A program made the position numbers and the translations under genes. From a virus (Duplodnaviria > Heunggongvirae > Uroviricota > Caudoviricetes), in the IMG/VR virus record IMGVR_UViG_2925891887_000007: a stretch of 46,375 bases of DNA; one strand, 5' to 3'. Shown piece by piece: positions 1,641 through 20,765 of the stretch (position 1 is the first letter of the stretch; each line of letters begins with the position of its first letter). The notes below the pieces were generated by a model. The model worked only from the letters and a program-made list of their open reading frames with translations, did no database searches and was not told the DNA's origin.

Positions 1641-4112
1641 TTAAGAATCAGCCTGACTCGGGATCAGTTTTTGCCAGATAACTGAAACGTATTTTGCCTG
1701 GTAACGGGCGTCATCAAGTGCATTATGGCGCTCACCTTCGAATGGAATAGCCGTTCTGGCATCGAAGTCTATGGCTTTCCCCAGCTCAACGATTGTGCGT
1801 ACATCGCGATCGTTGTAGTAACGCCACGGGCAGGGGATCCCCTGCCGTTCGTATGAACGGCGCAAAATCGTGTTGTCGAAGTTGGCTCCATTTCCCCAAA
1901 CCTGAACAAAAAATTCACCGGAGTTTTCGTCGATAAATTCTCGCAATTGTAACAGTGCATCATCTAACGGGATTTCATCGGTCATAATGGCAGATTGCGC
2001 TTCGCGTGATTGCTTAAGCCACCATTTAATGGTGTCCCGATCAATGACTCCGCCAGCAGTTTCCAGATCGATAGTCTTACTAAATTCCGGTCCCATATCT
2101 CCGGTTTGCGGATCGAAAAATATTGCACCTATTGAGATGATCGGGGCATCAGGATTTTTTCCCATGGTTTCAAGGTCGATCATTAGATGGTCACACGTCC
2201 TGCTGGTGGATGTGATTCCGTGATGACCGTTCACCTTAATTGGGTGATCTGCCGTCTCGCCAGTTTCATTATCGCTATTGTGATGCTGATTGCCGCCAGT
2301 GTTCTCCTTGTGTGGATGTTCAGCGCCTTCCATTTCCTCCGGATCATCTTCCTGAACTTCAACCTGATACTCTTCATCGAATGTTTCTTGGTATGTTGCG
2401 TCGCCCATCACCGCGCCACAATCAGGGCAGTTGCCGCCGCCGGTCTGACCGCAGGCGGTGCAGACTTTTTCCACTTCCTGTTGCGCTACTGGTTCAGGCT
2501 GTTTCGTTTCTGGCTCGTTTTGTAACGCATTTGGACTGTTTTGTTCCGCTTTTTGGTAGTTCCGTTCCGATTCATGCTGGTTCTGGTTCACAGAATCGCG
2601 GGTCTGGAGCCCCTTAACCCATTTCGGATCATTCGGGTCACTAATCCCTTCAACAAATTCACCACGTGATGCAGCAAGCAACTTATCGGCGTCAGGCTGG
2701 CTGATATTGGCTGCCTGCATAATTTTGTTTACTTCGTCAGCGGTAACTTTTATCGGCTCTGGTTGTTCTGAATCTTCAGCGGTATCTACATTTTGCGGTA
2801 AGCCCGTGTATGTGCCATTTTTTCGGGCAAAATATTCTTCTTTTGTGATTTCAGTGGCGCCAGCAGCCAGTGCCTTATCCAGACCAGAGAGTTTGTTTGC
2901 GCGACCGTATTTTTCTCCGTCCTTATCTGCGAAGAGGAAATAGAACGGCCCCTCACGCTCTACAGATGGTTCAGCTTCCGGCGCGGTTTCATTTTTTGGG
3001 ATATCAGATACCTCAGTTTCCACTGCATCAGTTTGTGTTTCTGATGACTGGAGAACATCAACAGTGCCCAGGTCTGTTTCTTCATTCTCAAACACGCCCT
3101 TTGTCGTCAGGTATTCGCAGATATATTTGTTCAGTGCTACGGGATCTTTGTGAATGTCGATCGGACGCTCACGGACAAGGCCAAAAATAGTTTGGCGGTC
3201 GTAGCGAAGGGCATCAGGCTGTTTGCGCATTGATGCCGAGATACGCTTCCAGTCTTCGCGGTCGTTGTCGATAACTTCTTTTTTTGCCCAGCGATGGATG
3301 CTGCCGTCAATGTTTCCGGCATCCACATCACCAGGCCAGAGAGCGTAGGCCAGTTCGTCATCCAGTGTTTTCCATGTCTGCTTGTATTCGCGATGAATGG
3401 CAGCAATGACCGGGCTGATTTTTCCTGTTGAATTTTCAGTGTACTGTTGATTGGCTCTGGCGCGGGCGAGATCAACAACAGACGTGTATTTTCCGGTTTC
3501 CTTGCGTTCACCTTCGCGACGTTTTTTCCAGATGCGCATCTCTGCCTGAATTTCGGGCCATTTAGCACCAGGAATACATTTATGCTTAACCCACCCAATG
3601 GCGTGCAACTTAAGCTCCGGATACATGGCGTTAACTTCTGGCATTTTCATCAACGCTTCAACGATATGTCCGTCGAATGTTGCCATGTCTTCCTGCAACA
3701 ATTCCTGTGCGCTAATAACCATATCAACGGTGATGTTTTCACATGTGTCGAACTTAACCATGACAGCGTTCTGTACTTCAGGGGCCAGCTTGTCAAAAGT
3801 GACGTTCATCGGATCGGATTCAGTCTCAACCGGGACAAAAGAAGCAGACTCCTCATCCCAGCGGTTTTCCTGCATATATTCAGCATCCCATGAATCGAGG
3901 GCAGGGCGGGGTATGCCAGGTTTATCCTCGCAGACAATAAATTTATAAGCGCAGTCCTGAGCAGCCGGATAATGTTCCAGGAATTGCCAGTGAAATTTTG
4001 CTCGAGCACGGCGTTCGTCGCCAGCTTCAATGGCTGTGGCTACAGCCACAGCGCCTTCTTCCCTTGTTGCCAGTTCGTCAGGAATAGCGGCGCAAATAAA
4101 GACTTTACTCAT
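1641..4112 (-). CDS. Large early protein with C-terminal DEDDh (DnaQ-like) 3'-5' exonuclease domain and a central CxxC-x-CxxC zinc ribbon
   Basis: C-terminus has DLETMG...WGNGANFD...HNALDDA exonuclease motifs; start chosen at MSKVF (GAGGT RBS), since the table start at 4148 is a TTG. Confidence 0.75.
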   Translation of the reverse strand: MSKVFICAAIPDELATREEGAVAVATAIEAGDERRARAKFHWQFLEHYPAAQDCAYKFIVCEDKPGIPRPALDSWDAEYMQENRWDEESASFVPVETESDPMNVTFDKLAPEVQNAVMVKFDTCENITVDMVISAQELLQEDMATFDGHIVEALMKMPEVNAMYPELKLHAIGWVKHKCIPGAKWPEIQAEMRIWKKRREGERKETGKYTSVVDLARARANQQYTENSTGKISPVIAAIHREYKQTWKTLDDELAYALWPGDVDAGNIDGSIHRWAKKEVIDNDREDWKRISASMRKQPDALRYDRQTIFGLVRERPIDIHKDPVALNKYICEYLTTKGVFENEETDLGTVDVLQSSETQTDAVETEVSDIPKNETAPEAEPSVEREGPFYFLFADKDGEKYGRANKLSGLDKALAAGATEITKEEYFARKNGTYTGLPQNVDTAEDSEQPEPIKVTADEVNKIMQAANISQPDADKLLAASRGEFVEGISDPNDPKWVKGLQTRDSVNQNQHESERNYQKAEQNSPNALQNEPETKQPEPVAQQEVEKVCTACGQTGGGNCPDCGAVMGDATYQETFDEEYQVEVQEDDPEEMEGAEHPHKENTGGNQHHNSDNETGETADHPIKVNGHHGITSTSRTCDHLMIDLETMGKNPDAPIISIGAIFFDPQTGDMGPEFSKTIDLETAGGVIDRDTIKWWLKQSREAQSAIMTDEIPLDDALLQLREFIDENSGEFFVQVWGNGANFDNTILRRSYERQGIPCPWRYYNDRDVRTIVELGKAIDFDARTAIPFEGERHNALDDARYQAKYVSVIWQKLIPSQADS

Positions 4113-4808: not shown

Positions 4809-5148
4809 ATTGATAACAGAGGGCGTTGCAGCGGGGTTGTCACTTAAGCGTATGGTCAACCTGACAACCCGGTGTCCTCAACGGGGAAGGAATAACCCCG
4901 CCATACTTACCGCCGCGCCATTTCGCGGGTTGCCACAACCGGAAGCGCACGGTCGACGAAAATTTAACGACAGGCTATCTATGAACCAGCTACCTCGCCG
5001 TGCGCTTTCGCGTTATGGTCTGACTTTTCAGGGAAATATCCTTTCAGTAAACTGTCAGTTCCGGATGCGCACCCGTGTCCGGCGCACGCACTCCACCTCA
5101 CCCGTGGAGAACTCCTTAATTACTAACCTTAGCTTTGTTGATTAGCTA

Positions 5149-6587: not shown

Positions 6588-7092
6588 ACAGGCTCGTGAG
6601 GCTCTGGATGCCTGGATATGTCGACCAGGAATGACACAGGAGCAGGCGACGATATTAATCACTGAAGCATTCTGGGCTTTGAAAGAGCGCCCGAACATCG
6701 ATGTTCAGCGTGTCACAGATGAAGGTGGCGCGGTTGATCAGCGAGCGCTTGGCGTTAATCGAGTGAAGATATTCGAACGCTGGAAGGCTATCGACACCAG
6801 GGATAAGCGTGAAAAGTTCACGGCGCTAGTGCCTGCAATTATGGAGGCTATCCGGATTAATGATTTCAGGTTGTATCGTGAAATTAGTGACGGAAAAAGC
6901 ATCACGTACATGATCGCCGGGTTAAACAAAGAATATGGCGATGTGGTGGAGTCCGGACTGCTTTTTGCTGATCCTGCCGTAGTGGATCGTGAAACTGACG
7001 AACTTATAGAAAAAGCAATTGCTTTCAAACTTGCGTATCGACAGCAATACCAACAAAAAGCTGGATGGAATTATGAGCCTTCTTTTTGCTGA
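6571..7092 (+). CDS. Hypothetical early protein in the cII position (possibly YdaT-like)
   Basis: 173-aa ORF overlapping cro-like stop; position only, family not confidently recognised. Confidence 0.55.
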   Translation: MKITPEQAREALDAWICRPGMTQEQATILITEAFWALKERPNIDVQRVTDEGGAVDQRALGVNRVKIFERWKAIDTRDKREKFTALVPAIMEAIRINDFRLYREISDGKSITYMIAGLNKEYGDVVESGLLFADPAVVDRETDELIEKAIAFKLAYRQQYQQKAGWNYEPSFC

Positions 7093-14103: not shown

Positions 14104-14478
14104 ATGCTCATAGATTTGGTTTTACCTTACCCGCCGACGGTGAACACTTACTGGCGACGCCGTGGCAGCACATATTTTATCTCGGAGGAGGGAAAGCGTT
14201 ATCGCCGGGCTGTGGCGCTTATTGTTCGCCAGCAGCGGCTGAAATTAAGCCTGTCCGGAAGGCTAGCGATAAAGGTGATTGCAGAGCCACCGGATAAGCG
14301 TCGTCGCGACCTGGACAATATCCTGAAAGCACCGCTGGATGCGCTGACGCATGCGGGAGTGTTAATGGACGATGAGCAGTTTGATGAAATCAATATCGTT
14401 CGTGGTCAGCCAGTATCTGGTGGACGTATGGGGGTGAAGATTTACCCCATAATGCATGAAGAGCAGGTCAAAAAATGA
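14104..14478 (+). CDS. rusA: Holliday junction resolvase RusA
   Basis: MLIDLVLPYPPTVNTYWRRRG...RRDLDNILKAPLDAL; GAGGTG RBS. Confidence 0.9.
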   Translation: MLIDLVLPYPPTVNTYWRRRGSTYFISEEGKRYRRAVALIVRQQRLKLSLSGRLAIKVIAEPPDKRRRDLDNILKAPLDALTHAGVLMDDEQFDEINIVRGQPVSGGRMGVKIYPIMHEEQVKK

Positions 14479-15296
14479 AACTGGAAGATTTACCGAAATA
14501 CTACTCCCCAAAATCCCCTTGCCTGACCGATGCATCGGCCTCAACGTCAAAAGATGCGCTGAGTATCACTGATGTGATGGCCGCGCAGGGCATGACACAG
14601 AATCGGGCTGAGATGGGGTTTTCTGCGTTCCTGGGGAAAATGGGCATCAGTATGAATGACAGGGCGCGGGCAACAGAATTACTGGCAGATTATGCACTCA
14701 GTCGGTGCGATCGTGTGGCGGCGTTGAGAAAACTTCCGGCAGAAATAAAACCGTTAGTGATGCGCATTATGGCTTCGTACGCTTTTGAGGATTATGCCCG
14801 CAGCGCAGCGAGTAAAAAGCAGTGCCCTTGTTGCTATGGGGAAAAATTTATTGAAAGCGTAGTTTTTACAAACAAGGTCCAGTATCCGGATGGTAAGCCG
14901 CCGGTATGGGCAAAGTGTACGAAAGGTGTGTATCCGTCTTACTGGGAAGAATGGAAAAAAGTCAGGGAGGTGGTAAAAGTTGCCTGTCCGGAGTGTGGCG
15001 GAAAGGGTGAGGTTTCCACCGTCTGTAAGGATTGCCGTGGGCGTGGTGTCGCCATTCACCGTGAAGAGTCGGTAAAACGTGGTATGCCTGTTATCAGAGA
15101 CTGCCAGCGTTGTGGTGGTCGTGGCTATGAAAGACTACCATCAACGGAGGCATTTAATGCTATATGCGAGGTGACAAACCAGATAACACGCGCGTCATGG
15201 GAAAAAACAGTTAAGAAATTCTATGATGCGCTGGTGACCCGGTTTGATATTGAAGAAGCATGGGCTGAGCGGCAGTTAAAAAAGGTAACTAGGTAA
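14475..15296 (+). CDS. Q: Late gene antiterminator Q
   Basis: 273 aa with multiple CxxC zinc-binding pairs; sits immediately upstream of a putative late promoter and terminator. Confidence 0.8.
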   Translation: MKLEDLPKYYSPKSPCLTDASASTSKDALSITDVMAAQGMTQNRAEMGFSAFLGKMGISMNDRARATELLADYALSRCDRVAALRKLPAEIKPLVMRIMASYAFEDYARSAASKKQCPCCYGEKFIESVVFTNKVQYPDGKPPVWAKCTKGVYPSYWEEWKKVREVVKVACPECGGKGEVSTVCKDCRGRGVAIHREESVKRGMPVIRDCQRCGGRGYERLPSTEAFNAICEVTNQITRASWEKTVKKFYDALVTRFDIEEAWAERQLKKVTR

Positions 15297-15299
15297 CAA

Positions 15300-15380
15300 G
15301 GTTGATTTTTCCGGAATCTGTGGTAAATTCGTCATAACGATGGGCTTTTTATACCTGACGTTAGAAGAGTTTCTACAACC
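15300..15380 (+). promoter_or_regulatory. Candidate late promoter (pR-prime) and qut region
   Basis: TTGATT, about 16 nt spacer, TAAATT just downstream of Q. Confidence 0.35.
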
Positions 15381-15406
15381 CGCCACCGAGCGGGTTTTTT
15401 ATTGCG
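15381..15406 (+). terminator. Candidate tR-prime terminator
   Basis: CCCGCCACCGAGCGGG hairpin followed by TTTTTT. Confidence 0.5.
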
Positions 15407-15439: not shown

Positions 15440-15515
15440 GGTCCTTTAGCTCAGTGGTGAGAGCGAGCGACTCATAATCGCCAGGTCGCTGGTTCAAATC
15501 CAGCAAGGGCCACCA
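15440..15515 (+). tRNA. tRNA with CAT anticodon (Ile2/Met type)
   Basis: Cloverleaf with acceptor GGTCCTT/AAGGGCC, D-arm TAGCTCAGTGG, anticodon loop CTCATAA, T-arm GGTTCAAATCC, 3' ACCA. Confidence 0.85.
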
Positions 15516-15620: not shown

Positions 15621-15697
15621 GCGTTGTTAGCTCAGCCGGACAGAGCAATTGCCTTCTAAGCAATCGGTCACTGGTTCGAATCCAGTACAGCGCGCCA
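15621..15697 (+). tRNA. tRNA-Arg (TCT anticodon)
   Basis: Acceptor GCGTTGT/ACAGCGC, D-arm TAGCTCAGCCGG, anticodon loop CTTCTAA, T-arm GGTTCGAATCC, GCCA end. Confidence 0.85.
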
Positions 15698-15807
15698 TAT
15701 TCATTCTTCCAGATTCCTTCCGGCAGAGCCTTATACTGGAATATACCTGGCTCAGGATATTGTTGAAAATATTATATGTTTGTCAAAAATAAAAGTTCTG
15801 TTAAGTA

Positions 15808-16161
15808 TTGATTGAGTGTTTGTTATACGGTCTAATGGTTTTTTCAGCATTAAATATTTATCATTCATATGGTGTGGGTAGAGTGAATATTGATGAGGCG
15901 TCGGGGTGTTTCATCCTTAGGCAGCGTATTGATATAGTCAATGCAGCACGAGCAAAGGCCTTCAGCCGTTTGACAGTTTTGTTCTGTGCTCCTGATCGTC
16001 TTTCGGGAAGAGACGTTATTATTCTGAATAGTGATGCTATACAGAGGGTTTGCGATGAGTTCATGGTTGCTAATTCAGAATTATTTGCTCTTGTTCAGGA
16101 GTACAACAGAATAGCCAGGACCTGTGGTATGGATGAACTTCGGATTACTCATCTGGGGTAG
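15808..16161 (+). CDS. Hypothetical protein in post-Q cargo slot (start uncertain)
   Basis: 117-aa ORF downstream of the tRNAs; no recognisable motif. Confidence 0.4.
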   Translation: MIECLLYGLMVFSALNIYHSYGVGRVNIDEASGCFILRQRIDIVNAARAKAFSRLTVLFCAPDRLSGRDVIILNSDAIQRVCDEFMVANSELFALVQEYNRIARTCGMDELRITHLG

Positions 16162-16635
16162 ATACATATCTGGATTATCACCTGTTACGGTAAAAAGTGA
16201 TTGCTTACTGTTTTTGTGAATGGCATTGCAGCAGCCGGATAATGTCAGTGCTGGCTGACGGTGTGCTGGTGGCGGGTGTGGTGGTTGTTGCTTTCCCGTT
16301 GCTGAAAAAGAAAACGCCAGACTGTTAGCCGGGTATCAGTTAGCGGGAGAAATTTTTAAATACTTCACAATTCAGGCGGTTGACTGTTCTCTGGTTTGCG
16401 GGGAGTTTGTTAAAAGAAACTGGCATGGTGAATCCCCCTGTGCGGAGGGGCAATCAGCGAGTAGGTATATGGGATAATCGCGGATTCAGGTGCTGGTACT
16501 GAATTCACCGGGAGGCACCCGGCACCATGCACTTCAATAGATTCTCTCCACATTATGGATATTCTTTCAGAATATCCCACGCAGACTTTGTGTAAATGTT
16601 AACAAATGTGCGTTTTATTTGATCTGATTCGCTGT

Positions 16636-16665
16636 TTGAGCGTCCAAAACAACGGTATATATAAT
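16636..16665 (+). promoter_or_regulatory. Sigma70-like promoter upstream of first lipoprotein gene
   Basis: TTGAGC, 18 nt, TATAAT (within TATATATAAT), about 30 nt upstream of the ATG. Confidence 0.4.
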
Positions 16666-16694
16666 CCTTTACTATATGACATATGTGAGGAAAA

Positions 16695-17123
16695 ATGGGT
16701 TTTCGTAGCGCATCAATTCTTACGTTGATTATTAGTGGGATTATTATCGGGTGCACTGATGCTGTATCGACAAATTATCATGACCGTACATCATATTACT
16801 CCGATAAAGCAATAGAGACACAGTATGTGAGTTCATCTGAACGTACTTCTGATGTTAGTGAGGATATCCGTCTGTATGCCCATCAAATCAAGAGCGCCAT
16901 CGAAAAACAGTTCGGGGATGCGAGTAAGTATTCAGGAAAAGAGTGTACACTGAGAATGCATATGGCCCCGAATGGCCTTCTACTGGAGGTTAAAAGAGAA
17001 AGTGGAGACCTCGATTTATGTCGTGAAGCGATGAATGCGATAAAGAATGCTGATATACCTGCCCCCCCTTCGCCGGAAGTATATAAAGTATTTCAAAATG
17101 GGGTGCTGGATTTTAAACCCTGA
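16695..17123 (+). CDS. Lipoprotein with TolA C-terminal (domain III)-like domain
   Basis: Signal peptide plus lipobox (IIGC); C-terminal YAHQIKSAIEKQF...YSGKECTLRMHMAPNGLLLEVKRESGDLDLC...IPAPPSPEVYKVFQNGVLDFKP closely resembles remembered E. coli TolA C-terminus. Confidence 0.8.
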   Translation: MGFRSASILTLIISGIIIGCTDAVSTNYHDRTSYYSDKAIETQYVSSSERTSDVSEDIRLYAHQIKSAIEKQFGDASKYSGKECTLRMHMAPNGLLLEVKRESGDLDLCREAMNAIKNADIPAPPSPEVYKVFQNGVLDFKP

Positions 17124-17273
17124 TATTTATTGTTTTGTAATAAACGGTTTCGGCTTAGGTTTGTTCTGACACAACTACGGCACTGAGCTAAATTTAGCGG
17201 ATAGTCAGCTCTGAGCCAGTGGCGGACGTAACAACTACTATTGCTGAGATTTTAATGGATTGAGGAGCAAGAA

Positions 17274-17669
17274 GTGGGATTAAAGAAAATCGTTATGTTG
17301 ACTTTTTGGGTCGGTTTTGTTGCGGGATGCACACCTTTACACCCTTCAGATTGCCACAAAACTACTGCTACAGGTAGTTGCAGTTCAGGACGCTGGGATG
17401 ATCAGGATGAATGGGGGGCGCAAGCGCGGGGAATCAGAGCTGCAATTAATGCCAAACTTGATGAGCCGCATAACTGGAAAGGGAAAATATGCAGGTTGCA
17501 TATGGAATTCTCTCAGGATGGCACGGCGTTAAAAATATCTACCAGTAACGGTGATAAAGCCTATTGCGAAGCGATAAAGTCCGCAGCTCATAAAGCCAAA
17601 TTTCCGGCCTTCAACAATCCGAAAGTCTACAGAGATTTTCAGAAATCTGGCTTTGACATGCGAGGTTAG
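17274..17669 (+). CDS. Paralogous lipoprotein with divergent TolA-C-like domain
   Basis: GTG start with GAGGAG RBS; lipobox VAGC; WKGKICRLHMEFSQDGTALKISTSNGDKAYCEAIKSAAHKAKFPAFNNPKVYRDF. Confidence 0.75.
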   Translation: MGLKKIVMLTFWVGFVAGCTPLHPSDCHKTTATGSCSSGRWDDQDEWGAQARGIRAAINAKLDEPHNWKGKICRLHMEFSQDGTALKISTSNGDKAYCEAIKSAAHKAKFPAFNNPKVYRDFQKSGFDMRG

Positions 17670-17920
17670 CTCTTCAATTACTATATCTCATTCATAGCAA
17701 ACTGACAGATTTGATGATGTTCTATATACGAAACCTGTGATGTCAAGTCTGAGCTAATACAAATAAACATAATATCAGAGAAATACATTTTATTAGCTCG
17801 CTACGGCGAGCTTTTTATATTGCATCGTCTCCAGCATATATATCAATTAAGGCTCTGATTGATGTGTCTGGAAGCCTACACATAATAACTATGCCATCCG
17901 TTCCGTGCGGAGGTGAGGCT

Positions 17921-18136
17921 ATGAAATCCATGGACAAAATTTCAACAGGCATTGCCTACGGCACCTCCGCAGGCAGTGCTGGCTACTGGTTTTTACAGCT
18001 GCTCGATAAAGTCACGCCCTCACAGTGGGCAGCAATAGGTGTGCTGGGTAGCCTGGTATTTGGCCTGCTGACGTACCTGACAAACCTTTATTTCAAGATT
18101 AAAGAAGACAAGCGTAAGGCTGCACGGGGAGAGTAA
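17921..18136 (+). CDS. S: Class II holin (phage 21 S-type pinholin, dual start)
   Basis: [31 protein letters not shown]...[15 protein letters not shown]; GGAGGTGAGG RBS; second Met at codon 4. Confidence 0.88.
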
Positions 18137-18140
18137 TTCA

Positions 18141-18485
18141 ATGACTCAAAAATATGAACTGATTGTGAAAGGGATCCGCAATTTTGAGAATAAAGTTACG
18201 GTAACTTTAGCGTTACGGGACAAAGAACGCTTTGACGGTGAAATTTTTGACCTGGACATCTCGCTGGACCGTGTTGAAGGTGCCGCGCTGGAGTTTTATG
18301 AGGCAGCAGCCAGAAGGAGCATCAGACAGGTCTTCCTGGATGTTGCTGCCGGGTTATGTGAAGGGGATGAGCTGTCGCCGGAAAAGCGCCCCATAATTTT
18401 AGAGGCGCAGAATGTGTGGATAACCTACAAAGGAAAGCTACCGGGAAGAATTACTGGTTCTCTGAAGACTCCGCCGAAATGGTAA
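18141..18485 (+). CDS. Hypothetical protein inserted between holin and endolysin
   Basis: 114-aa ORF 4 nt after holin stop with GGGGAGAG RBS. Confidence 0.5.
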   Translation: MTQKYELIVKGIRNFENKVTVTLALRDKERFDGEIFDLDISLDRVEGAALEFYEAAARRSIRQVFLDVAAGLCEGDELSPEKRPIILEAQNVWITYKGKLPGRITGSLKTPPKW

Positions 18486-18723
18486 TTTCACCAGCATATT
18501 TTTCTTCCAGTAATACCGCCAGCCACTTGAAAGAATTTTGTTGTTGCTGGGACCATTTGGGGTTGAGTGATTCAAGCTGGAGCGATGCCAGTGTTGGTTG
18601 CATTTGTTCCTTGGGAATTGAGAATGCCAGATATGAAAATGCGACAGTAAGGGCATTTACATCATCCCGAAGCTTGGAAATGCAGTCGAGCAACTCCTGT
18701 AGAGAAATGGTGCTATTGTCCAT
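18451..18723 (-). CDS. Hypothetical antisense-oriented protein within lysis cassette
   Basis: 90-aa minus-strand ORF, ATG preceded by GAGAGGA; 3' end overlaps the plus-strand ORF by 35 nt. Confidence 0.4.
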   Translation of the reverse strand: MDNSTISLQELLDCISKLRDDVNALTVAFSYLAFSIPKEQMQPTLASLQLESLNPKWSQQQQNSFKWLAVLLEEKYAGEITISAESSENQ

Positions 18724-18828
18724 AAACAATCCTCTCTATTGTATTTAACTATTCCTTGCCTGATTCAACAGGCCGGGACAGATAAACATATCCAGGGTTC
18801 AGAAACCGATAAATCCTGATAAATATCC

Positions 18829-20072: not shown

Positions 20073-20765
20073 TCAAATCTTATCTAACTCATTATAGGCT
20101 TCGATAATAAAAATTCTGATTTTAATAAGGCATGATTCAATGAAAGGAATTACTTCATGGTCATTCCCATGGAATCTTATTTTTTTCTCTTCGGTAATGA
20201 CTATGTTTAAAGGTACACCATTACCACTTCTTTGTAATTTCCCATTTTCGAAAGTAAAGTCTTCTAATTTTTTGCCATTGATGTGGTTGTTTTTAAAGAG
20301 AATTTTTGCTGAGCTTCCTGCTGTGATTAAACCAAAACCATCTACGCTCACACTTAGGTCTTTAACAGAACTCTCTTCTCTTAAGGGGATTGGTTGTCTG
20401 TGCTTTACTTCATTAGTGAGATTACACATCATTTCCAACCAAGATTCGCCAGTGTGATAATCCTGTATAGAAGTAAAAATTTTATATAATGGAGAAGATG
20501 ATGGTGGGTTTATTTTTAGCGTCTTTGAGAAAAATTTATCAATAAACTCTTTTTTTCCGTAAGGGAAATATATTTTGGGGCGCTCATCATTACTGCGTGG
20601 AGAAATATATTTATCATAGGTATCATTAGCGAGATACTCTAAGGAACTTCGTAAGTTTTCCAAAATAGCTTTGACTTTTACAGGCTTGATATGCTGTGTC
20701 TGTCTCATTATGCCAAGACTTTCTTCAACTTCTTGCAATAAGTCCAACGAGCCTTCTCTAGACAT
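20073..20765 (-). CDS. Hypothetical 230-aa protein, low-GC cargo between lysis genes and cos
   Basis: Minus-strand ORF in AT-rich DNA flanked by long AT-rich intergenic regions. Confidence 0.65.
   Translation of the reverse strand: MSREGSLDLLQEVEESLGIMRQTQHIKPVKVKAILENLRSSLEYLANDTYDKYISPRSNDERPKIYFPYGKKEFIDKFFSKTLKINPPSSSPLYKIFTSIQDYHTGESWLEMMCNLTNEVKHRQPIPLREESSVKDLSVSVDGFGLITAGSSAKILFKNNHINGKKLEDFTFENGKLQRSGNGVPLNIVITEEKKIRFHGNDHEVIPFIESCLIKIRIFIIEAYNELDKI

Follow-up and report, generated by a model that had tools for sequence, protein, structure and literature searches.

Two predicted lipoproteins with TolA domain III in a lambdoid prophage

The stretch of DNA analysed here (the window) is the 46,375-nucleotide IMG/VR virus record IMGVR_UViG_2925891887_000007. 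Between the antiterminator gene Q and the holin gene it contains two consecutive open reading frames (ORFs) on the + strand: ORF1, also denoted T1a (positions 16695–17123, ATG start, 142 amino acids), and ORF2, or T2 (17274–17669, GTG start, 131 amino acids), the latter with a GAGGAG Shine–Dalgarno sequence 7 nucleotides before its start codon. Both encode putative lipoproteins ending in a copy of the C-terminal domain of the cell envelope protein TolA (domain III, here TolA-III). The element that carries them is a lambdoid prophage, 99.8% identical to phage mEp460_ev081 over the region.

Each protein is made of three parts. In ORF1 a signal peptide with its lipobox (residues 1–20, positions 16695–16754) is followed by a disordered tether (residues 21–53) and by TolA-III (residues 54–142, positions 16854–17120). 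The corresponding parts of ORF2 are the signal peptide and lipobox (residues 1–19, positions 17274–17330), a conserved, cysteine-containing tether (residues 20–44) and TolA-III (residues 45–131, positions 17406–17666). The PROSITE-type lipobox pattern matched both proteins, as TLIISGIIIGC-T in ORF1 (Cys20) and LTFWVGFVAGC-T in ORF2 (Cys19). The lipobox is kept in 26 of 29 ORF1-type and 117 of 119 ORF2-type homologues, and its cysteine is invariant in the alignments. According to the E. coli sorting rule, an aspartate at position +2, directly after this cysteine, retains a lipoprotein in the inner membrane; ORF1 and ORF2 both have threonine there and none of the homologues has aspartate. Since the +2 residue is never aspartate, sorting to the outer membrane rather than inner-membrane retention is predicted, and both lipoproteins are probably anchored at the inner face of the outer membrane.

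AlphaFold2 (AF2) models of both proteins consist of a confident C-terminal domain with the α/β fold of TolA-III, in which a three-stranded sheet packs on helices, and with a predicted local distance difference test (pLDDT) score of about 90, and 45–50 disordered N-terminal residues. The ORF2-type tether, TPLHPSDCHKTTATGSCSSGRWDDQDEWG, is as conserved as the folded domain, even among relatives that are 42–58% identical. In residues 20–48 of ORF2 (positions 17331–17417) ORF2-type proteins have a GRWDDQDEWG motif and a further pair of conserved cysteines. This tether is kept across genera and is missing from ORF1, and AF2 confidence is low for it. A likeness of the tether to the colicin TolB box found no support in a phmmer search of the PDB, which returned no colicin, the best match being DivIVA with E = 1.8; mimicry of that box is therefore an improbable reading.

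The C-terminal domains are genuine TolA-III, well past chance similarity. The Pfam model PF06519 (“TolA C-terminal”, cut-off 25 bits) matches ORF1 with 82.6 bits (E = 2.4e-23) and ORF2 with 52.9 bits (E = 4.4e-14), and ORF1 matches the solved E. coli TolA-III chains (1s62, 3qdp, 2x9a, 1tol) with E values of about 1e-27 to 1e-28. Residues 334–421 of E. coli TolA are identical in ORF1 at 52 of 88 positions (59%) and in ORF2 at 27 of 88 (31%), in agreement with the initial annotation of this DNA, which regarded ORF2 as a divergent paralogue; the two proteins are about 30% identical to each other. In Foldseek comparisons the ORF1 domain superposes on TolA-III (2x9a_B, 1tol) with a root-mean-square deviation of 0.6–0.7 Å and the ORF2 domain (3qdp, 3qdr, 2x9a, 1tol) with 1.0–1.2 Å, in both cases at probability 1.00. 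All top matches of both domains are TolA-III, with TonB-type domains far lower. The cysteine pair that forms the disulfide in E. coli (C363–C388) is aligned in ORF1, ORF2 and all homologues, where both columns are invariant. The lipoprotein signals and TolA-III that the initial annotation had ascribed to both ORFs are thus borne out by the lipobox pattern, by significant alignment to the TolA C-terminal domain and by predicted domain structures that superpose on TolA-III at 0.6–1.2 Å.

Neither protein is TolA. Full-length TolA of strain K-12 has 421 residues, and both ORFs lack its transmembrane anchor (domain I) and the helical, alanine- and lysine-rich domain II of about 250 residues. Both failed the full-length TolA equivalog model NF007065 (107.8 bits for ORF1 and 52.3 bits for ORF2, compared with a cut-off of 213). 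With TIGR02794 (cut-off 59.45 bits) ORF2 scored 45.5 bits, below the cut-off, and ORF1 scored 75.6 bits but covered only the last 98 positions of the model (265–362 of 362). By comparison with the K-12 tol-pal cluster, the two genes also lie outside tolQRA-tolB-pal-cpoB. Nevertheless, hundreds of RefSeq genomes carry ORF1 as tolA in the PGAP annotation, with “cell envelope integrity protein TolA” as its product (for example NZ_CP031134.1, 4120202–4121502). Because domains I and II are missing this label is an over-annotation, and a tolA symbol on a 142-residue prophage lipoprotein could mislead pangenome or essentiality analyses. In PHROGs both ORFs belong to phrog_5772, “unknown function”.

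Genomic setting of the gene pair

The pair occupies the cargo slot of the late region, as the initial annotation had recognised. The 5′ edge of this slot is the Q gene (14475–15296, 273 amino acids; PF03589, E = 8e-55), preceded in the window by DUF968 and RusA genes, and its 3′ edge is the gene for a phage-21-type holin S (17921–18136, 71 amino acids; PF04971, E = 9e-36); these features, like all others in the slot described below, are on the + strand. The block at 15700–17820 has a guanine plus cytosine (GC) content of 0.42, compared with 0.52 in DUF968-RusA-Q, 0.49 in the lysis genes and 0.54 in the terminase genes. The presence of the module varies among prophages, as the tandem is joined to differing Q and endolysin alleles, and elsewhere the slot is occupied by stxAB or by a variant of ORF1. 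Judged by its low GC content and its promoter-like and terminator-like consensus matches, the ORF1–ORF2 block has the anatomy of a moron.

The strongest promoter-like site of the region, TTGAGC-18-TATAAT (16636–16665), ends 29 nucleotides before the ORF1 start codon and matches the sigma70 consensus at 10 of 12 positions. It tops 11 such sites found by the scan, a number to be compared with 6.7 ± 2.7 in shuffled sequence, and it is a consensus match only. The site is identical in other loci that bear the module and absent 5′ of the ORF1 variant, where the upstream region differs. The near-consensus site that the initial annotation took for the promoter of ORF1 is present, but it is conserved with this particular module only. 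A weaker promoter-like site, CTGACA-17-TAAATT (17166–17194, 9 of 12 matches), lies in the 150-bp gap between ORF1 and ORF2 and is of doubtful significance. The two-gene unit is closed by a terminator-like hairpin with a T-run (17795–17812; stem of 7 bp with 5 GC pairs, found by scan), about 110 bp 5′ of the holin gene. The same holin gene directly follows the tandem in every IMG/VR locus long enough to show it.

Between Q and ORF1 the slot starts with a candidate late promoter pR′ (TTGATT-16-TAAATT, 15302–15329), a weak site picked by eye and under the scan threshold. It is followed by a terminator-like hairpin with a T-run (15377–15396; stem of 7 bp with 5 GC pairs, found by scan), a candidate for tR′, the target of Q antitermination. 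A promoter directly 3′ of Q and then a terminator is the usual lambdoid layout, from which these roles were assigned. The segment covering both sites (15297–15403) also gave a sub-threshold match to the Rfam Trp operon leader (27 bits compared with a gathering score of 41), most likely a generic short leader-plus-terminator shape and no real Trp leader. Next come genes for tRNA-Met (CAU; 15440–15515) and tRNA-Arg (UCU; 15621–15697), both called by ARAGORN and matched by the Rfam tRNA model with 69 and 68 bits, respectively. The low-GC cargo block then holds a phage protein gene, orf117 (15808–16161, TTG start; phrog_2873, “unknown function”, E = 2e-69), for which Pfam and PADLOC searches gave no match. 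A 58% identical copy of orf117 lies about 1.9 kb 3′ of the ORF1 variant in other prophages, and because it accompanies the variant there, orf117 seems to be a real mobile gene. The last feature before the promoter-like site of ORF1 is an STnc100-family small RNA (sRNA) element (16394–16584; Rfam RF02076, 114 bits compared with a gathering score of 47).

On the other side of the holin gene, the window contains DUF1327, lysozyme and Rz-like spanin genes. The interval between holin and lysozyme (18141–18828) comprises the DUF1327 gene and then a stretch of about 340 bp in which no gene is obvious; the counterpart of the DUF1327 ORF in mEp460_ev081 is shorter and reaches right up to the lysozyme gene. 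An ORF on the − strand (20073–20765, 230 amino acids), located between the spanin genes and terS, matches phrog_13652 (“unknown function”, E = 1e-158) and had no match in Pfam or PADLOC. It is a candidate for a second cargo gene, in a classic moron position.

The initial annotation had equated the position of the pair with that of stx in Shiga-toxin phages, which is correct for the broad Q-to-lysis slot and not for the exact position within it. The Stx1 phage 75/02 has, in this order, Q, stxA, stxB, STnc100, AgvB, the nanS-p esterase gene and holin, and the window pair lies 3′ of STnc100. The exact stxAB position is taken by the ORF1 variant, T1b, which is 65–68% identical to ORF1. In one of the compared loci (L051) and in other prophages, T1b stands right after two tRNA genes and is followed by STnc100, AsxR, nanS-p and holin, with about 3 kb of other cargo between T1b and holin. 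STnc100 was located at 6599–6807 in L051 and at 3395–3593 in another compared locus (L094). In both the Stx1 phage and the variant locus an anti-sRNA, AgvB or AsxR, lies on the opposite strand 3′ of STnc100. The window has neither, and its pair, being 3′ of STnc100, takes the place of the segment with AgvB or AsxR and the nanS-p esterase gene.

Distribution of the two gene types

At a coverage of at least 80%, we found the tandem in 773 of 5,426 complete E. coli genomes (14%). Any ORF1-type gene was present in 897 of these genomes, in up to three copies each; O157:H7 strains were absent from a sample of 40 matches drawn from the 897. In a phage collection of 50,697 records only mEp460_ev081 (LR597641.1) carried the tandem, and none of the other records, including other mEp460 records, matched the module. 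The contrast between 14% of E. coli genomes and a single phage record suggests that the module lives chiefly in resident prophages. IMG/VR contained about 35 loci with ORF1 and ORF2 followed by the same holin gene, 23 loci with T1b alone and 16 loci with an ORF2-type gene alone.

The two types differ in host range. A word-indexed protein search, which reached close relatives only and did not retrieve host TolA, found ORF1-type proteins in Escherichia and Shigella only. ORF2-type proteins formed 348 clusters with 77–88% identity, in Citrobacter, Enterobacter, Serratia, Klebsiella and Raoultella. ORF2-type genes were also present in 595 PLSDB plasmids. On conjugative IncK2/Z and IncI-gamma/K1 plasmids (MPF_I) the gene lies about 67 bp 3′ of the relaxase gene nikB (at 4995–5426 in L003 and at 3495–3926 in both L092 and L093). 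It is a backbone gene of these I-complex plasmids, just past which differing resistance or integrase cargo is inserted; its true start probably lies 12 codons 3′ of the annotated one. A pO157-like IncF plasmid (L002, 4995–5426) has an ORF2-type gene between the psiB/hok leading region and toxB.

Chromosomal settings were found as well. Several Enterobacter assemblies have a lone ORF2-type gene at one chromosomal locus amid ordinary metabolic and regulatory genes. In Serratia marcescens (L009/L010, 6001–8736) the gene adjoins a pair of genes with GmrSD_N and HEPN domains, which looks like a defence island. At one prophage-end locus the neighbours of an ORF2-type gene, identified by eye in their translations, are umuDC-like and YedK-like.

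An exhaustive HMMER search yielded 122 representative clusters, of which 64 were short and seemingly full-length, and a lipobox was found in 50 of these 64. Short TolA-III lipoproteins therefore form a broad and apparently unstudied class. Giant proteins with 10–12 “TolA-like” stretches from the same search (P0197, P0207 and P0256) were discarded as false positives, being SEA-domain or other repeat proteins. EDL933_2012, described as a prophage “TolA”-type protein induced 32-fold by ciprofloxacin (PMC11125564), was set aside as well, because the 40 sampled ORF1 matches contained no O157:H7 strain that would link it to the family.

Origin and selection

A blastn search of the E. coli genomes with the ORF1 domain under “distant” settings returned prophage copies only, in 897 genomes, and never matched host tolA. 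In a direct comparison with K-12 tolA the domain is 58.7% identical at the DNA level overall and 40% identical at third codon positions. Together, the silence of blastn and the low third-position identity rule out a recent capture from host tolA. The other matches kept from a scan of 100,044 species representatives were in enterobacterial genera and are presumably the hosts' own tolA genes. They were 44–60% identical to ORF1 (Escherichia 60%, Franconibacter and Siccibacter 59%) and thus about equally distant from it. With such equal distances no donor lineage of ORF1 stands out, and the capture is either old or fast-evolving.

The ratio of nonsynonymous to synonymous substitution rates (dN/dS) in the domain is 0.23–0.36 for T1a compared with T1b and T1c, and 0.10 for ORF2 compared with a plasmid copy. 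These values are well below 1 and indicate that both genes are maintained by purifying selection.

A possible role as tethered decoys

Group A colicins and filamentous phages all need either the TolA tip or TolB. Three ligands, the N1 domain of the filamentous-phage protein g3p (g3p-N1), colicin N and the N-terminus of TolB, bind TolA-III by strand addition to strand β3, with D418 and K420, and none of these interactions survives proline substitutions at β3 (PMC4339652). The opposite edge (L375–P380), with three cation-π lysines, is the docking site of colicin A (PMC3365938). The initial annotation had also listed Pal as a contact of TolA-III, and this part of its account is less secure since direct TolA-III–Pal binding is disputed (PMC7391070).

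The two proteins compare differently with these surfaces. In ORF1 the β3 strand is kept, with GVLDFKP corresponding to APLDFKP in TolA and LDFKP identical, D418 and K420 included. Its colicin A strand is conservative (LLEVKR compared with LLDIKP in TolA), and two of the three cation-π lysines are kept. The β3 sequence of ORF2, SGFDMRG, is still a β-former, and the three lysine positions are occupied by E, S and H.

We propose, with a probability of roughly 45%, that ORF1 and ORF2 act as outer-membrane-tethered TolA-III decoys for group A colicins and filamentous-phage g3p and/or by titrating TolB. The cargo genes of the prophage would yield lipoproteins anchored on the inner side of the outer membrane. 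From there a 25–33-residue tether would let each of them present a free copy of TolA-III towards the cell wall. Colicin translocation domains and g3p N1 first emerge in this space outside the cell wall, where TolB–Pal also resides. By β-strand addition the decoys could capture the ligands of the TolA tip (g3p-N1, colicin N and colicin A), and they could rival TolA in binding the N-terminal strand of TolB, which is needed by the TolB-dependent colicins (E2–E9, A and K). Tol-dependent bacteriocins and filamentous phages would then be tolerated by the lysogen, probably at the cost of some leakiness of the outer membrane when expression is high. We infer the outer-membrane site, expression in the lysogen, ligand binding and protective phenotype of both proteins.

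The decoy hypothesis is plausible, and there are precedents for it. Periplasmic pIII-N1 sequesters TolA, makes cells resistant to colicin A and lowers phage uptake by 4 logs (PMC10424213). Free periplasmic TolA-III has been used to make E. coli leaky (PMC6195910, which cites Levengood-Freyermuth 1993 and Wan & Baneyx 1998). The affinity of TolA-III is about 1 µM for colicin N and g3p and about 40 µM for TolB, so that even a decoy of moderate abundance could bind invaders while doing little harm to Tol-Pal. In the 1993 work of Levengood-Freyermuth, Click and Webster, periplasmic TolA-III reportedly also gave tolerance to group A colicins.

The distribution of the ORF2 type adds to the argument. 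Relatives on plasmids and chromosomes indicate a function independent of phage lysis, and the elements that carry them would benefit from protection of the host. I-type plasmids make pili that are used by the filamentous phage If1, and structure 2x9a is the solved complex of If1 g3p with TolA. Such plasmids would gain by shielding their host from If1, and the plasmid setting would fit the decoy model.

Several observations weigh against this proposal. The loss of all three colicin A lysines and the FDMRG sequence of β3 mean that the ligands of ORF2 may differ, and its strongly conserved, cysteine-rich tether goes beyond what a simple decoy accounts for. One colicin molecule can kill a cell, and a decoy must therefore be abundant or very well placed; titration of TolB should in turn be costly to the cell. 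The promoter of ORF1 is a consensus match with an 18-nucleotide spacer that the variant gene does not share. PADLOC-DB contained no match to ORF1 or ORF2 at E ≤ 0.1, and a full-text literature search whose coverage excludes most subscription journals yielded no work on TolA-like lipoproteins encoded by prophages or plasmids.

Among the alternatives, the proteins could be modulators of Tol-Pal, in which a tethered TolA-III binds the TolB N-terminus and damps the mobilisation of Pal, resulting in a looser outer membrane, more vesicles or easier rupture when the genes are transcribed from the late promoter in lytic growth. The retained TolB-binding strand of ORF1 would serve such a role, and Q-antiterminated transcripts must cross both genes, which lie between the late promoter region and holin. 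The leakiness caused by periplasmic TolA-III points the same way, and according to a review, changes in the interactions of TolB could be a way to control vesicle output (PMC7391070). We nevertheless consider this explanation unlikely. The idea that the pair weakens the outer membrane at lysis loses weight, since relatives of ORF2 are found on plasmids or stand alone in chromosomes without lysis genes in the vicinity, and about 3 kb of other cargo lie between the ORF1 variant and holin. Moreover, the phage is already equipped with a holin, an endolysin and an Rz-like spanin, and the terminator-like site of the two-gene unit precedes the holin gene.

An equally improbable alternative is that these are host-adaptive outer-membrane lipoproteins, in the manner of lysogenic-conversion lipoproteins such as Bor or TraT, which reuse the TolA/TonB-like fold for some other ligand such as a component of the cell wall or outer membrane, another class of bacteriocin or a host factor. 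It is favoured mainly for ORF2, in which the colicin A contacts have diverged and the additional Cys-loop tether is strongly conserved. It would also agree with the fixed chromosomal locus in Enterobacter, the copy next to toxB on a virulence plasmid of enterohaemorrhagic E. coli (EHEC), the use of the slot for virulence cargo such as stx, and the fact that short TolA-III proteins with a lipobox make up at least 50 distinct clusters. On the other hand, ORF1 closely copies the enterobacterial TolA tip, including an identical binding strand, which is hard to explain unless the partners of TolA are targeted, and the evidence points to no alternative ligand. The view of ORF1 and ORF2 as decaying, functionless fragments of a captured tolA, which could appeal to the RefSeq name of ORF1 and to the many truncated copies in databases, is essentially excluded by the intact frames, the lipobox kept in nearly all homologues, the low dN/dS, the 77–88% identity of ORF2-type proteins over five genera and a similarity to host tolA DNA too low for a recent fragment.

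If the decoy hypothesis is extended from the two genes to their relatives, short outer-membrane lipoproteins with a stolen TolA tip might constitute a widespread, unrecognised and mobile class of immunity against Tol-dependent bacteriocins and pilus-specific filamentous phages. This generalisation is tentative, and we hold it with more reserve than the proposal for the pair itself. The class would be spread by lambdoid prophages (in the stx slot), I-complex conjugative plasmids and pO157, and would also be found at the conserved chromosomal locus of Enterobacter and beside defence-like genes in Serratia. Taken furthest, this reading would make ORF2-type proteins bivalent, with the Cys-loop/W-x5-W tether bound to a second site (for example the TolB propeller) and TolA-III to the TolB N-terminus, thus forming a high-avidity TolB trap.

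A natural mobile decoy of the TolA tip would, if real, represent a new route by which prophages and plasmids protect their host. It would help to explain the frequent and unexplained insensitivity of wild E. coli to colicins and would bear on the use of colicins as narrow-spectrum antibacterials. As roughly every seventh complete E. coli genome carries the tandem, with relatives on the EHEC virulence plasmid and I-complex resistance plasmids, any phenotype would be epidemiologically relevant. The two proteins would also serve as natural probes of the TolA–TolB interaction.

Comparison with known systems

The TolA-III domain itself and the automatically annotated genes are already known; what would be new is their role as naturally occurring imitations of the Tol import hub on mobile elements. 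ORF1 and ORF2 share the Pfam family, fold and disulfide cysteines of E. coli TolA-III (residues ~334–421; 1S62, 3QDP, 1TOL, 2X9A, 3QDR). Unlike host TolA, they have neither the TolQR anchor nor domain II and cannot transduce the proton-motive force, and owing to their lipoprotein signal they are probably located at the opposite membrane. Recombinant periplasmic TolA-III is likewise a free TolA-III domain in the periplasm, but it is soluble, artificial and over-expressed, whereas ORF1 and ORF2 are natural, predicted to be lipid-anchored, diverged from the host protein and borne by mobile elements.

The cargo of other phages in the Q-S interval is similar in arrangement. Like ORF1 and ORF2, stxAB and other such genes form a low-GC insert 3′ of Q, pR′ and the tRNA genes, are read through at induction and have candidate signals of their own. 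The product of stxAB is wholly different, and the window pair follows STnc100 instead of preceding it.

In their proposed role, the two proteins would resemble exclusion systems of phages. Cor (phi80, N15 and mEp167) and Llp (T5) are small phage-encoded outer-membrane lipoproteins that disable an import route common to phages and colicins. They block the receptor FhuA and are no copies of a host domain, and ORF1 and ORF2 are unrelated to them in sequence, having no such PHROG or Pfam match. Exclusion by pIII (g3p) of Ff phages targets the same interaction between TolA-III and its ligands, and blocks the entry of colicin A and filamentous phages (PMC10424213). The sequences are unrelated and the two strategies would be mirror images of each other: pIII sequesters the TolA of the host, whereas ORF1 and ORF2 would mimic TolA and sequester the invader or TolB.

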